Below, piece by piece: positions 7,442-23,449 of a stretch of 64,000 nt of DNA; position 1 is the first letter of the stretch, and each line of letters begins with the position of its first letter. Origin of the DNA: a virus (taxonomy: Duplodnaviria; Caudoviricetes). The position numbers were made by a program, and so were the translations under genes. The notes beneath the pieces were generated by a model. The model was given only the letters and a program-made list of their open reading frames with translations. It was not told where the DNA came from and did no database searches. The stretch lies in IMG/VR virus record IMGVR_UViG_3300011116_001007; one strand, given 5' to 3'.

Positions 7442-7470
7442 ATTATAGCACTGGTGCCAATACCGGTCAA
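7442..7470 (-). promoter_or_regulatory. sigma70-type promoter
   Basis: TTGACC-N17-TATAAT. Confidence 0.8.
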
Positions 7471-11888: not shown

Positions 11889-11917
11889 ATTATATAGCAG
11901 ATTTAGTTAGTTGTCAA
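11889..11917 (-). promoter_or_regulatory. sigma70-type promoter
   Basis: TTGACA-N17-TATAAT, perfect consensus. Confidence 0.85.
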
Positions 11918-17659: not shown

Positions 17660-18551
17660 GAAAGGACTGAGAATACATCCTCTCCAACAACACCTCGGAC
17701 ATTATTGTACACCTTGCGAGTATACTTTCTTCCGACTTCCACCCGGCCCTATTTCTAGGTATCCTGGTCTGCTGTCAGCATCGCCGTTTAGAGACAGGCA
17801 GTAGTCTTGACGCTGTATGCTATTCTACGCTTTCTATTCCGTTGACCTTGCGAGCCATTCAAGTGCGCTAACACCTTACGAAACTTCCTGCATAAACTAA
17901 TGTCACCTTGCGAGCTTCATTAGACTTGGTTCTCTTGCGAGCCAAGTATTAGATGCTTTTCACATACAACCGAGTCAGTCTTTGCGTTTTAATCGTTAGA
18001 AGGAGTTGAACCTTCAGTCTATTTCTTAAAAGGAAATCGGCCTACCATTAGCCTATAACTGAACCTACTGCGATGTGCTGACTCAGTTGCTGCATACTCT
18101 TTTGGAATACACAATACAACACACCACGTACCTTTTGTCTTGCGAACTACTCAGTCGTCTTTTGCGATCGGTGTGTCCCCGCCTTTCGACAGACCCACTA
18201 ACCACTCAAACTGCATACGAGCCCTTGGGTGCAACCCCTCGGACAAATACGCTACCCTTTCTCATACTAATTAACTGGACTGGTTTAGTTGTGAAGTCAG
18301 CACCACCTGTTACTTTCCATCGACTCAAGTTCCCCTTGCGGGCTTGTAAATCAACGTTCTTTCCACAACATCCAGCGTCATTGTTACAACCACCGGTCTT
18401 ATCAGTGATCGCTACCTCACGGTAGTGAGCAGGCTTGCTTAAACGAACTATCTCTAGCGGAGTTATGTAGGCATACCTCCTTTGGCTGTGTCACCACAGT
18501 TATTCTTCATAAACCAGCAAGCTGGCTTATAGGACGTTAAACCGCCCTTGA
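17656..18551 (-). ncRNA. probable GOLLD large ncRNA
   Basis: ~890-nt non-coding unit from a promoter to ACCA, at least 6 CGCAAG tetraloop hairpins, 3' GGATGTATTCTCAGTCC similar to my recollection of GOLLD ends, tRNA-array context; Rfam not run. Confidence 0.65.
17991..18062 (-). tRNA. tRNA-Lys(TTT)-like, embedded in the large ncRNA
   Basis: D-arm GGCT-AATGGT-AGGCC, loop CTTTTAA, T-arm GAAGG-TTCAACT-CCTTC; bulged acceptor, no CCA. Confidence 0.65.
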
Positions 18552-18557
18552 AATCTT

Positions 18558-18586
18558 ATTGTAGCATCAAAGTTGATCCTTGTCAA
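18558..18586 (-). promoter_or_regulatory. sigma70-type promoter of the large ncRNA
   Basis: TTGACA-N17-TACAAT. Confidence 0.8.
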
Positions 18587-18596
18587 CTTGAGTTTT

Positions 18597-18680
18597 ACCA
18601 TATAGAAACACACTAGCCTGCAGGACTACTAATAGCTCACGGGTACGCCGCTACTACTAGGTAATGTGTTTTTATATGGT
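18597..18680 (-). repeat. ACCATAT-stem element, copy B
   Basis: ACCATATAAAAACACATT..AGTGTGTTTCTATATGGT; starts with the tRNA-Lys ACCA. Confidence 0.8.
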
Positions 18681-18752
18681 AGGACCGCCCGGATTCGAAC
18701 CGGGAACTGGCGGATTAAAAGTCCGCTGTGATAACCATTTCACCACGATCCC
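18677..18752 (-). tRNA. trnK: tRNA-Lys(TTT)
   Basis: Canonical cloverleaf. Confidence 0.96.
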
Positions 18753-18756
18753 ATGT

Positions 18757-18831
18757 TGGTCCCTCTACCGAGATTTGAACTCGGACGTCACGGATTAAGA
18801 GTCCGGCATGCTGCCTTAACATCTTAGAGGG
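18757..18831 (-). tRNA. trnK: tRNA-Lys(CTT)
   Basis: Cloverleaf, loop CTCTTAA. Confidence 0.9.
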
Positions 18832-18925
18832 TTGGTATGTAAAATTGTCTTTCACGTGCCAACCCGGACCTACATGGGATCTGGATTGACACTAGCGTTT
18901 AGCACGTTTCATGTCATGTTTCCTT

Positions 18926-19186
18926 TTAAATGTGTTCTTTGTTGAGTCGAGCTCGAGCCGCAGTAGCAAATTCGCTAAAGTTGCCGCACTTGTCTTCCCA
19001 CCGCAACATACTACGGCAAGTGTAACTGATGTCACGCTTGTTCAAGCATACTGCTTCTTGATTGAGTTCACCGTTGACATACACACGGCAGTGATAGTTG
19101 CCGTCAATATTGCGAACAGTTACTTCGTGATCTACTTCGCCCAGGATACAACGCTGGATGCGAACTAGTTGTTTGTATCGTTCCAT
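18926..19186 (-). CDS. hypothetical protein
   Basis: MERYKQL.. with AAGGAG RBS. Confidence 0.7.
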   Translation of the reverse strand: MERYKQLVRIQRCILGEVDHEVTVRNIDGNYHCRVYVNGELNQEAVCLNKRDISYTCRSMLRWEDKCGNFSEFATAARARLNKEHI

Positions 19187-19205
19187 ACGTTCTCCTTTGA
19201 AAAAT

Positions 19206-19279
19206 TGGTGCCCCACGACAGAATCGAACTGCCATCACAGGATTACAAAACCAGTGTACTGCCATTGTACTAGTAGGGC
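19206..19279 (-). tRNA. trnT: tRNA-Thr(TGT)
   Basis: Cloverleaf; anticodon stem has two U-U mismatches. Confidence 0.8.
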
Positions 19280-19286
19280 GTGATTG

Positions 19287-19451
19287 TTAGGATGTCTTTG
19301 ATCTTTTGTCTATAGCACGTTGAATCTTGGCTCGGTGCTTGGGCCTGGCACTCTCCAACATCTTGGTGAGTTGAGCAACATTCAGCGGTCCCAGTCTGGG
19401 TTTGCCACTGTGATGCTTCATGGGATCGTTGCTTGTGTTAAATGATGACAT
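19287..19451 (-). CDS. small basic protein (54 aa)
   Basis: Hand-translated MSSFNTSNDPMKHHSGKPRLGPLNVAQL..; AGGA RBS. Confidence 0.6.
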   Translation of the reverse strand: MSSFNTSNDPMKHHSGKPRLGPLNVAQLTKMLESARPKHRAKIQRAIDKRSKTS

Positions 19452-19470
19452 TTTGTTTCCTAAATTAAAT

Positions 19471-19546
19471 TGGCTCCTCAGCGTGGGATCGAACCACGGA
19501 CATCTTGATTAACAGTCAAGTGCAACTACCGCTGTGCTACTGAGGA
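19471..19546 (-). tRNA. trnN: tRNA-Asn(GTT)
   Basis: Cloverleaf, G73-CCA. Confidence 0.95.
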
Positions 19547-19553
19547 ATAAACT

Positions 19554-19643
19554 TGGCGGAACGACTGAGACTCGAACTCAGAACCCGGATTACGCCGAGC
19601 GACAGATTAGCAATCTGCTCTAATACCATTATAGGACCGTTCC
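19554..19643 (-). tRNA. trnS: tRNA-Ser(GCT)
   Basis: Class II cloverleaf, G73. Confidence 0.95.
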
Positions 19644-19683
19644 GTGAAAATACTTATGCTGTATCGACAGCATATAAAAAACT

Positions 19684-19757
19684 TGGCGTACCCACTAGGA
19701 CTCGAACCTAGACTGACGGTTTTGGAGACCGCGATGCTGCCATTACACTATGGATAC
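19684..19757 (-). tRNA. trnW: tRNA-Trp(CCA)
   Basis: Cloverleaf, loop CTCCAAA. Confidence 0.95.
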
Positions 19758-19760
19758 ACA

Positions 19761-19835
19761 TGGTGGTTGTGGTTGGCATCGATCCAACCTCCTCGCCTTA
19801 TGAGGGCGGTACGCATCCATCTACGTCACACAACC
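19761..19835 (-). tRNA. trnM: tRNA-Met(CAT), probably elongator
   Basis: Loop CTCATAA; atypical T-loop ATCGATG. Confidence 0.8.
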
Positions 19836-19840
19836 AAAAC

Positions 19841-19917
19841 TGGGGTGTCTGATGGGGATCGAACCCACGCATGTCGGAATCACAACCCGAGGCCTTAACC
19901 ACTTGGCGACAGACACC
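19841..19917 (-). tRNA. trnH: tRNA-His(GTG)
   Basis: Encoded G-1:C73 pair, loop TTGTGAT. Confidence 0.95.
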
Positions 19918-19927
19918 ATATAACAAA

Positions 19928-20004
19928 TGGTACCACCTGAGAGATTCGAACTCCCAACCCCCGGATTCGTAATCCAGTGCTCTATCCAATTGAGCCAAGG
20001 CGGT
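19928..20004 (-). tRNA. trnR: tRNA-Arg(ACG)
   Basis: Cloverleaf, loop TTACGAA. Confidence 0.95.
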
Positions 20005-20053
20005 AAAAAACTGTCCAGGGACGAAGCCGTCAAAGGGCTGTATGGACTTGACT

Positions 20054-20131
20054 TGGAGTAGCGGGTGAGATTTGAACTCACGGTTTTTGGGATTTGCAAT
20101 CCCATGCATTGGGCCACTCTGCCACCGCTAC
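20054..20131 (-). tRNA. trnC: tRNA-Cys(GCA)
   Basis: Cloverleaf, U73-CCA. Confidence 0.95.
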
Positions 20132-20138
20132 ATGTTGT

Positions 20139-20214
20139 TGGTGCAACCTGTAGGAATCGAACCTACTTCAACGGCTCTTCAGGCCGCCGCTATGACCACA
20201 TCAGCTAAAGTTGC
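20139..20214 (-). tRNA. trnF: tRNA-Phe(GAA)
   Basis: Cloverleaf, loop CTGAAGA. Confidence 0.95.
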
Positions 20215-20215
20215 T

Positions 20216-20289
20216 TGGCAGGGACACTAGGGATCGAACCTAGGCTAACAGAGTCAAAGTCTGTTGTGCTACCATTACACAATGTCCCA
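20216..20289 (-). tRNA. trnQ: tRNA-Gln(TTG)
   Basis: Cloverleaf, weak 1:72 pair, G73. Confidence 0.95.
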
Positions 20290-20296
20290 ACAAAAC

Positions 20297-20372
20297 TGGT
20301 GGAGGATAACGGATTCGAACCGTTTGCTCCTGGTTGCAAACCAGGTGTGTTAGCCAAGTATACCAATCCCCC
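20297..20372 (-). tRNA. trnA: tRNA-Ala(TGC)
   Basis: G3:U70 identity pair. Confidence 0.95.
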
Positions 20373-20476
20373 GAAAAAAACACAACATAGACGCTCTGCT
20401 ACTGGGCAGACTAGGATTACGCCTTCTATGTTGTTTTGTATAGAGGTGCCGTAATCGAAGCTCTCTATACAATAAC

Positions 20477-20560
20477 TGGTGGAGACAGATGGATTCGAAC
20501 CACCGCGCTATTAAGAACAGATTTACAGTCTGTCGCAATCGACCACTCTGCCATGTCTCC
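20477..20560 (-). tRNA. trnY: tRNA-Tyr(GTA)
   Basis: Class II cloverleaf. Confidence 0.95.
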
Positions 20561-20785
20561 AAAATTGTTACACACTCTTGCGAATGTGTGTATTAAAACA
20601 GACTGTATGCTGTGGGAATAACATTTCTGTCAAGCGACCAGCAACGGATACGCAATCTGTTTTAATACGCTCGGATTTTTTTATGTACAAGAACATAAGC
20701 CATCCCCGAGGCCGCCCGTTTGCCCATGTTTTAAGTGCAGGCTAGGTCCACGTTACCTATTCACACTATTCAACTCTACAAAATG

Positions 20786-20814
20786 AAAAACCCCGGAGTT
20801 TTTAGTTCCGGGGT
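20786..20814 (-). terminator. intrinsic terminator (attenuator 1)
   Basis: ACCCCGGA-loop-TCCGGGGT-TTTT. Confidence 0.85.
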
Positions 20815-20839
20815 CCTTTTGGGTATGTCTTGATACTTG

Positions 20840-20965
20840 TTACAGTATATGACTCCTCAAGGACCCGCGGGCTCCTGGAAATGTATTCACGCGACCATAG
20901 CCACGCGCCCAGGTACTTGCCTGATGCATGGGTTTAATCAACAGTGAACAGATTTGCGTTTTCAT
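20840..20965 (-). CDS. putative leaderless leader peptide 1 (41 aa)
   Basis: MKTQICSLLIKPMHQASTWARGYGRVNTFPGARGSLRSHIL; ATG 7 nt after TATAAT. Confidence 0.55.
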   Translation of the reverse strand: MKTQICSLLIKPMHQASTWARGYGRVNTFPGARGSLRSHIL

Positions 20966-20972
20966 AGTATCA

Positions 20973-21001
20973 ATTATACGTTATATATCTTAAGAAGTCA
21001 A
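20973..21001 (-). promoter_or_regulatory. sigma70-type promoter of leader 1 / tRNA array
   Basis: TTGACT-N17-TATAAT. Confidence 0.85.
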
Positions 21002-21184: not shown

Positions 21185-21276
21185 TGGCGGAAGACGGAGG
21201 AGTCGAACCCCATCCCTGTTAAGAGAACCTGGTTTTCAAGGCCAGTCGCAGGACCATCCCCGCTGCATCATCTTCC
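21185..21276 (-). tRNA. trnS: tRNA-Ser(TGA)
   Basis: Class II cloverleaf, G73. Confidence 0.92.
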
Positions 21277-21679: not shown

Positions 21680-21772
21680 TGGGCCTCTGAGAGTGGAATT
21701 GAACCACCAAGGTTTTTGGAACCTTTTTGACCTACTAGTAAGGACGACTTTACCGATTCGTCTACTCAGAGA
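21680..21772 (-). tRNA. atypical class II tRNA with possible CTA (amber) anticodon
   Basis: 8-bp acceptor, D-arm GAC-GAATCGGTAAA-GTC, loop TACTAGT, long variable arm, T-loop TTCAATT, CCA. Confidence 0.55.
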
Positions 21773-23233: not shown

Positions 23234-23262
23234 ATTGTAGCAGTTGGGCAATTAGTGGTCAA
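23234..23262 (-). promoter_or_regulatory. sigma70-type promoter
   Basis: TTGACC-N17-TACAAT. Confidence 0.75.
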
Positions 23263-23267
23263 CCACC

Positions 23268-23294
23268 AAAAAAAAACCCGCCTAGTTGGCGGGT
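23268..23294 (-). terminator. intrinsic terminator (attenuator 2)
   Basis: ACCCGCC-AACTA-GGCGGGT followed by a long U tract. Confidence 0.9.
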
Positions 23295-23316
23295 CTTTCG
23301 TGAAATTTGTGTAGTA

Positions 23317-23415
23317 TCAAATATCACTAGGCCCGCTGAAGTCATAATCCAGCGCCTCACTCGCATAGTTGAGTGAGGGTATCTCTCGGGACAGTTGGGC
23401 TTGTTGCATAATCAT
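23317..23415 (-). CDS. putative leaderless leader peptide 2 (32 aa)
   Basis: MIMQQAQLSREIPSLNYASEALDYDFSGPSDI; ATG 5 nt after TATAAT. Confidence 0.5.
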   Translation of the reverse strand: MIMQQAQLSREIPSLNYASEALDYDFSGPSDI

Positions 23416-23420
23416 AGTGT

Positions 23421-23449
23421 ATTATATATGCCTATTGACAAAAAAGCAA
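23421..23449 (-). promoter_or_regulatory. sigma70-type promoter of leader 2
   Basis: TTGCTT-N17-TATAAT. Confidence 0.65.

Follow-up and report, generated by a model that had tools for sequence, protein, structure and literature searches.

A putative leader-peptide transcription attenuator ahead of a conserved structured RNA and a tRNA array in uncultured freshwater huge phages

The window, that is, the complete 64,000-nucleotide stretch of DNA that was analysed, originates from an uncultured huge phage, the DNA of which occurs in viromes and metagenomes from freshwater, lakes and rivers. Its B-family DNA polymerase was only 46–50% identical to the enzymes of Sinorhizobium phage Phosso and Agrobacterium phage Atu_ph07. 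The window harbours 34 tRNA genes, a tmRNA and a GOLLD RNA. The GOLLD RNA (17664–18127, minus strand; Rfam RF02032, 202 bits, full-length) has a tRNA-Lys embedded at 17991–18062 and is located downstream of a strong promoter at 18586. The phage tmRNA (25068–25439, minus strand) was identified as permuted by ARAGORN and Rfam (tmRNA_permuted, 127.9 bits; beta_tmRNA, 127.7 bits), and its tag peptide is ANDELFALAA. Two further features lie at 21680–21772 and 21189–21276 (minus strand): a ‘tRNA-Pyl’ with a CUA anticodon and a long variable arm, reported by ARAGORN, and a sub-threshold tRNA-Sec-like Rfam match (36.8 bits) between tRNA-Met and tRNA-Leu, at a spot where ARAGORN made no call.

The locus described here is surrounded by genes that are all on the minus strand, in a region where strong sigma70-type promoters are common. 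It is headed by a sigma70-type promoter (TTGACT-17-TATAAT, 20973–21001, minus strand) with 11/12 matches. The start codon ATG, at 20965, is situated 7 nt past the -10 hexamer without a Shine–Dalgarno site and is thus leaderless. The leader ORF (20840–20965, minus strand) comprises 41 codons (MKTQ...SHIL), ends in a TAA stop codon at 20842–20840 and includes, at 20911–20909, a Trp codon conserved across the whole family. Downstream of the ORF are an intrinsic terminator (20780–20816), a conserved structured non-coding RNA (ncRNA) of about 200 nt with a 5' AGUGUG... end (20565–20767), and 14 tRNA genes (18677–20560) in the order Tyr, Ala, Gln, Phe, Cys, Arg, His, Met, Trp, Ser, Asn, Thr, Lys, Lys, all on the minus strand. 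An earlier note on this DNA had listed a consensus promoter, an ATG near +1, a 41-codon ORF, a terminator and 14 tRNAs, each of which was found again; the ncRNA, which occupies the 230 nt between the terminator and tRNA-Tyr, was absent from it.

Eighteen amino-acid types occur in the leader peptide, Asp and Glu being absent, as could be read off its translation. The argument from composition in the earlier note, that the peptide includes all amino acids of the downstream tRNAs, did not hold, since the match was within chance in the window (26 of 40 residues, where a fraction of 0.567 was expected; p = 0.19) and no correspondence between leader and array was detected across 52 relatives, for which the score of the leader composition was 0.388 against the own downstream tRNA set and 0.358 against other arrays, the own set being higher in 27 of the 52. 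Asp and Glu are frequent in the leaders of the relatives, and runs of regulatory codons are not present in the leader.

Two hairpins that use the same bases can be drawn at the end of the leader unit, all coordinates being on the minus strand. The intrinsic terminator is formed by GGACCCCGGA, the loop ACUAAAAAC and UCCGGGGUUU, followed by a U tract (-17.1 kcal/mol), and its core may also be given as GGACCCCGGA-ACTAAAAAC-TCCGGGGTTT before the U tract. The 5' strand of the antiterminator, CCCGCGGGTCCTTGAGGA, lies inside the ORF (20854–20871), while its 3' strand, CCAAAAGGACCCCGGA (20807–20822), is composed of a 6-nt flank and the 5' arm of the terminator. The perfect 8-bp pairing of the earlier note was confirmed: the core GGGTCCTT (20866–20859) is complementary to AAGGACCC (20818–20811), which overlaps the terminator 5' arm. 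A small apex hairpin, AUACU-GUAACA-AGUAU (20833–20848), holds the stop codon in its loop, and analogous hairpins holding the stop codon were visible in the relatives. The predicted energy of the antiterminator fold was -27.1 kcal/mol, versus -17.1 kcal/mol for the terminator. Rfam gave no match at E ≤ 1 over 20561–21001.

Fifteen terminator-like hairpins were detected in the window, and only two of them combined a short ORF with complementarity to the terminator arm, namely the unit at 20780–20816 (duplex -23.6 kcal/mol, z -4.9) and a second one at 23293 (z -2.7). The rarity of this combination places the window unit beyond chance. The second unit (23268–23449, minus strand) has an ATG 5 nt past a TATAAT hexamer and a 32-codon ORF, with the stop codon 21 nt before the arm. 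In this unit GCGGGCCU pairs at 7/8 positions with AGACCCGC of a strong terminator, in the same geometry as in the first unit. Its peptide is unrelated to that of the first unit, and promoters follow directly, at 23262 and 23165. Rfam matches of the second unit to Phe_leader and Trp_leader were sub-threshold and driven by the terminator.

No usable hits were obtained when the leader unit, the leader peptide and the ncRNA were compared by blastn and tblastn with 50,697 phage records, none of which carried the leader or the ncRNA sequence. Relatives were recovered from IMG/VR. The exact 27-nt hairpin was present in two IMG/VR contigs, and a degenerate hairpin pattern retrieved 28 stretches, six of them with the full layout of promoter, small ORF and hairpin. 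A pattern built on the 230-nt region 3' of the terminator matched more than 120 contigs of huge phages, the longest of 382 kb. Upstream of the conserved region of those contigs, 91 terminator hairpins were found, which largely retained the loop AYUAAAMAC and differed in their stems by compensatory changes (ACCCCGGA/UCCGGGGU, ACCCUGGA/UCCAGGGU, ACCCCAGG/CCUGGGGU, AAGCCGCU/AGCGGCUU and others). The relatives considered below are 85 distinct homologous units from IMG/VR contigs of uncultured huge phages (86 units in the ORF count).

An ATG-initiated ORF was present in 85 of the 86 units under the criterion of at least 26 codons and an end 18–36 nt before the arm; the same count yielded 3.8 units (maximum 7) for shuffles and 6 for reverse complements. 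These ORFs are 26–63 codons long (median 47) and their stop codon is located 20–34 nt (median 28) before the 8-nt core arm. Promoters with at least 10/12 matches head 83 of the 85 homologous units. Starts are leaderless in 23 units, including the window, with the ATG 4–11 nt past the -10 hexamer, and are preceded by a 5'UTR in 60 units, 31 of which show a Shine–Dalgarno-like motif; the 5'UTR examples that were read were 30–57 nt long, with a hairpin and an AAGGA-type Shine–Dalgarno sequence. Judging from these sequences, the two modes of starting, leaderless or with a 5'UTR, point to translation itself being the conserved trait, although translation was not measured. The classical coding signature is weak, and the case for translation therefore rests on the maintenance of the frame, the start contexts, the geometry of the stop codon and switches between Ser codon families.

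It could be argued that the unit is a stand-alone small non-coding RNA of about 170 nt, running from promoter to terminator, in which the ORF is accidental. The transcript is strongly structured (folding z = -3.2 in the window and -3.8 in the related unit L004), the third codon positions vary no more than the first and second (their entropy is not raised), and weak, terminator-driven Rfam matches exist, if for the second unit only. An accidental ORF, however, would not be expected in 85 of 86 units when 3.8 are predicted, nor to have its start codon served by two different initiation modes and its stop codon at a set distance from the arm. Over its N-terminal two thirds the ORF has no consensus structure, and the downstream genes lack promoters of their own. 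This explanation was rejected on the conservation of the leader reading frame, in spite of the strong folding z-scores, and is considered highly improbable.

The pairing between leader and terminator arm was evaluated with RNAduplex, using the last ~100 nt of the leader against the arm plus an 8-nt flank. The mean energy was -18.4 kcal/mol, compared with -9.4 kcal/mol for shuffled ORF parts, -13.3 kcal/mol for the arms of other units and -6.7 kcal/mol for another upstream segment, and the own arm paired better than the arms of other units in 82 of 85 cases. Plain MAFFT alignments (A2 and A3) set the antiterminator strand in inconsistent registers and were discarded in favour of a covariance-model alignment. 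The resulting alignment A6, obtained from the antiterminator covariance model, contains 58 units, including the window at 20782–20874 (34.9 bits). As it was fitted to the antiterminator it is somewhat biased towards that helix; the RNAduplex control with mismatched arms is independent of it.

In A6, 85.6% of the antiterminator cells were paired and 8 of the 10 pairs showed changes on both sides, one of them being A-U in 28 units, G-C in 22 and G-U in 5. The covariation score was 0.268, against 0.158 for shuffled alignments (reached in 0 of 500) and a maximum of 0.118 when the strands were slid. The terminator was paired in 98.1% of cells, with changes on both sides in 6 of 10 pairs and a covariation of 0.302 versus 0.193 shuffled. 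Columns 120–129 pair in both helices, so that the antiterminator and the terminator cannot coexist. In transcripts truncated ahead of the 3' arm, 6 or more of the 8 arm bases paired upstream in 62 of 85 units; at full length, the minimum-energy fold was the antiterminator in 57 of 85, and forcing the terminator cost just 2.3 kcal/mol on average. In most units the antiterminator strand ends 7–14 nt before the stop codon, which is placed at the apex of the antiterminator. On the other hand, no third element was evident: pairing of the antiterminator strand with the upstream ORF, as an anti-antiterminator would require, was no better than in shuffles (mean z +0.4), RNAalifold gave no consensus hairpin for the initial two thirds of the ORF, and a pause hairpin was not found.

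A hairpin identical to that of the leader units, including the loop AYUAAAAAC, was found in IMG/VR contigs of a different phage family (L008–L031), where it ends a gene of 135–155 aa (...YPTGAFG...GFKLAAS). Upstream complementarity to the hairpin is absent at these gene ends (z about 0). Being located at the end of an ordinary gene, the hairpin is regarded as a bona fide terminator and these genes as a natural negative control for the antiterminator. The terminator sequence is common to unrelated freshwater phages.

The ncRNA downstream of the terminator folds into five helices and belongs to no Rfam family. Its family extends over more than 120 huge-phage contigs, with compensatory changes in 30 of 43 pairs and a long stem with variable cargo. 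In 96 of 97 loci the ncRNA precedes a tRNA array, the first gene of which is most commonly tRNA-Tyr, as in the window. About half of the related loci carry an inserted small ORF of ~59 aa between terminator and ncRNA (for example, L004:3300–3476, plus strand), with a TTG or ATG start and its own Shine–Dalgarno sequence, which leaves no room for a promoter; it is absent from the window, and its matches against Pfam and PHROGs were only sub-threshold (RsiG-like, 16.7 bits against a cut-off of 27).

In agreement with the earlier note, no further sigma70 promoter was found in the window before 18586, none on the minus strand reaching 10/12 matches; two 9/12 sites occur within the tRNA array, at 19312 and 19035 (minus strand). 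With regard to sigma70-type promoters of at least 10/12 only, none was found behind the terminator in 64 of 84 units. This was the case in all 22 units in which the hairpin lies 20–65 nt from the ncRNA, with gaps down to about 10 nt, and, in the interval between terminator and ncRNA, in 42 of the 50 units with the inserted small ORF. Promoters of their own were present behind the terminator in 8 of 12 units of intermediate spacing (TTGACA-17-TATAGT) and in 8 of 50 long units, which indicates that the switch is not the sole route to downstream expression.

With respect to the leader peptide, pN/pS amounted to 0.77 over the N-terminal part (0.75 in a shifted frame) and to 1.35 over the C-terminal part, where the motif GGGTC of the RNA is translated in either of two frames, as Gly-Ser (GS) in some members and as Arg-Val (RV) in others. 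Third codon positions were as conserved as the other two; Ser columns alternate AGT and TCA codons, and Leu, Arg and Gly columns vary synonymously. As far as sequence comparison can tell, the peptide is weakly constrained, as would be anticipated were the translating of the leader more important than the peptide made. M1 and one Trp are invariant, Asp and Arg are invariant in the major subfamily, and Thr-Pro-Glu-Ile is near-invariant. In the major subfamily (e.g., L097:2934–3077, minus strand), GATCG, which encodes Asp-Arg with a CGY codon for Arg throughout, and TGG do not vary at the nucleotide level. This nucleotide invariance beyond what the peptide needs (GAT CGY, TGG) hints at an unrecognised function at the level of RNA, pausing or arrest. 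A profile of the major subfamily retrieved 405 protein clusters from public data, all of them unnamed or annotated as ‘hypothetical protein’, and the leader peptides gave no significant match against Pfam, PHROGs or solved structures (PDB).

These residues could belong to a nascent-peptide arrest sensor of the TnaC or SpeFL kind, with an intrinsic terminator, in which Trp together with the downstream D-R-T-P-E (N-S-I-P-G in the window subfamily) would stall the ribosome just before the antiterminator strand in response to one specific signal, for instance a small molecule or a given aminoacyl-tRNA, with read-through confined to that situation. In its favour are the invariant Trp (TGG), the Asp and Arg that never vary in the major subfamily, and a Pro codon which, in that subfamily as well as in the window unit, precedes the GGGTCC core by 12–13 nt, so that a ribosome with Pro in its P site would abut the helix and leave it unmelted. 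The alternation of AGT and TCA Ser codons also indicates some selection at the amino-acid level. Against it, pN/pS is just 0.77, the motif is missing in some subfamilies, the spacing from Trp to Pro varies from 9 to 14, and some members do not have such a Pro. No arrest peptide appeared in the profile search of solved structures, and the resemblance to TnaC is by analogy only. An arrest sensor is doubtful, with a low probability assigned to it.

A simpler possibility is that the hairpin is a constitutive partial terminator behind a gene for a micro-protein, setting a fixed ratio of short mRNA to read-through, with the complementary strand tuning that ratio or stabilising the 3' end and with nothing being sensed. 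Several of the observations would suit it: the same hairpin ends ordinary genes in other phages, some units have a promoter behind the hairpin, promoters directly follow the second unit of the window (23268–23449), and the peptides form a family with invariant M1, W, D and R and 405 clusters. A micro-protein with a function of its own is nevertheless difficult to reconcile with a peptide that is weakly constrained (pN/pS of 0.77 versus 0.75 in the shifted frame, and of 1.35 in the C-terminal part, where the RNA motif is read in two frames) and that has no match in Pfam, PHROGs or solved structures. Moreover, a fixed leak needs no conserved, covarying antiterminator overlapping the arm, nor a stop codon kept 20–34 nt from the arm, at the antiterminator apex, even in units that otherwise cannot be aligned. 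The partial terminator was considered unlikely, but it is retained as a minor possibility.

Four lake metatranscriptome runs contain the region, as assembled contigs only; they provide no true ends, levels or termination efficiency, and carry-over of DNA is possible. In run X17, a 245-nt contig (record 19) without differences to the window and with a depth of 13.7 extends from 20964 to 20720; its start lies 1 nt from the first base of the ATG, and the terminator is crossed by 68 nt. The sole X17 contig upstream of 20964 was a variant with a depth of 2. Run X16 yielded a 226-nt contig (depth 19.2) from 20945 to 20720. Both contigs stop at the conserved motif AAACGGGCGG, and the shared end at 20720 is probably a branch of the assembly graph; the break at 20964 may also be due to such branching. 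The contigs are consistent with transcription starting at the ATG and with read-through transcripts. The results named in the earlier note as refuting its proposal included a transcription start downstream of the ATG and a pairing that is not conserved. Neither of these was met: an RNA-library contig reaches 20964, so that the start is not downstream of that base, and the antiterminator pairing is conserved in the relatives. The comparison with relatives that the same note had suggested, for an ORF and a pairing maintained while the peptide diverges, came out in its favour, with the ORF kept in 85 of 86 units and the pairing conserved despite a weakly constrained peptide.

The preferred interpretation is that of a ribosome-dependent transcription attenuator heading an operon of a ~200-nt structured RNA and a tRNA array. 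It rests on strong comparative evidence and is considered probable, with appreciable doubt remaining. In the absence of experimental data, it is an inference that a ribosome chooses between the folds, and so are the direction in which the system responds and its natural trigger, including the starvation and anticodon nucleases proposed in the earlier note. According to this model, host RNA polymerase would start at or adjoining the ATG and produce a leaderless mRNA. The nascent RNA could take one of two folds: a long antiterminator hairpin between the 3' end of the ORF and the flank and 5' arm of the terminator, with the stop codon at its apex, or the terminator hairpin. On an untranslated RNA, or with a ribosome far behind, the antiterminator would form first and the polymerase would continue into the ncRNA and the tRNAs, because a third element that could sequester the antiterminator strand is missing. 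A ribosome close behind the polymerase, heading for the stop codon, would melt or occupy the antiterminator strand; the terminator would then form and end transcription. The GGGTCC core lies 17–24 nt upstream of the stop codon in the window, and a ribosome at the stop codon covers the inner part of the antiterminator only, so that occlusion would be a matter of timing and not of simple steric cover. Synthesis of phage tRNAs and ncRNA would increase with slow or late translation of the leader and decrease with efficient translation. These phages thus probably raise their tRNA output when translation lags.

Leader-peptide attenuators are known from the amino-acid operons of enterobacteria (trpL, hisL, pheL, thrL, leuL). 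The phage unit shares with this class a short ORF upstream of the regulated genes, an intrinsic terminator and an exclusive antiterminator with its 5' strand in or near the ORF, and the position of the ribosome is likewise proposed to decide the fold. It differs in lacking the 1:2 anti-antiterminator and a pause hairpin, so that untranslated RNA should read through; in having neither a run of regulatory codons nor a match to the downstream tRNAs; and in gating phage ncRNA and tRNAs from an mRNA that is often leaderless. Of the trp/his-type attenuator gating tRNAs that the earlier note had proposed, the ORF, the terminator and the exclusive antiterminator stand, whereas the anti-antiterminator and the codon run are absent and the first product is the ncRNA. 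Without an anti-antiterminator this is not the four-region trp/his design.

General or proline-specific translation speed, and not a single biosynthetic end product, is sensed by the leader ORFs of Salmonella mgtCBR and mgtA (mgtP, mgtL) and by antibiotic-responsive leader-ORF attenuators found by Term-seq; all of these control bacterial protein-coding genes, and mgtA uses Rho. As in those leaders, uncoupled or stalled leader translation would favour continued transcription in the phage unit, which has an intrinsic terminator before phage tRNA genes and a different peptide family. TnaC, SecM and SpeFL resemble the phage leader in a conserved Trp with downstream Asp, Arg or Pro within a short leader peptide that precedes a termination decision. 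In contrast to them, the phage leader has variable spacing, a weakly constrained peptide, no sequence match in the PDB, an intrinsic terminator in place of Rho and no known ligand. By analogy, the design is inferred to be two-state, and would be closer to the logic of TRAP or mgtP than to a four-region trp leader. The Bacillus subtilis TRAP attenuator of the trp operon is also two-state, a factor on the 5' part of the antiterminator blocking it in favour of the terminator (PMC3064811). That factor is the TRAP protein bound to (G/U)AG repeats, while in the phage unit it is proposed to be the translating ribosome.

A full-text literature search retrieved no account of phage tRNA genes being controlled by leader peptides or by attenuation. 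A broader reading is that a large clade of uncultured freshwater huge phages, comprising at least 85 units and 405 peptide clusters, runs a homeostat of its translation hardware. The leader ORF would gauge the gap between polymerase and ribosome, a lag would open transcription of the ncRNA and the tRNAs, and the Trp...Asp-Arg-Thr-Pro-Glu motif would serve as a programmed pause, tuning or gating the outcome. The lag could come from host shut-off, starvation or defences that target tRNAs. This reading is offered tentatively, as a possibility that may well prove incorrect. More generally, a conserved switch tying the transcription of tRNAs and ncRNA to how well the ribosome performs would bear on the question of why phages carry tRNA arrays and when these are used. 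It would provide a direct mechanism for a demand-driven supply of tRNAs during infection, including a possible response to host defences that cleave tRNAs; leader-peptide attenuation would gain RNA genes as targets and a two-state variant with read-through as the default, and a new and widespread structured RNA that is co-regulated with tRNAs would be added. The leader element is compact (about 220 nt) and relies on sigma70 promoters and an intrinsic terminator, and it should therefore be amenable to Escherichia coli reporters even though the host is unknown.

Starts close to the -10 hexamer were also observed elsewhere in the window. The early promoters at 7470, 9272, 9811, 10148, 11340 and 11917 (minus strand) have in common the initial transcribed motif TATAAT-A(A/C)ACACAT. 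At 7470 and 10148, an ATG located 6 nt past the -10 hexamer is in frame with a Shine–Dalgarno-led start codon a few codons downstream, and at 11917 an ATG is found at the same distance of 6 nt, without a Shine–Dalgarno sequence.
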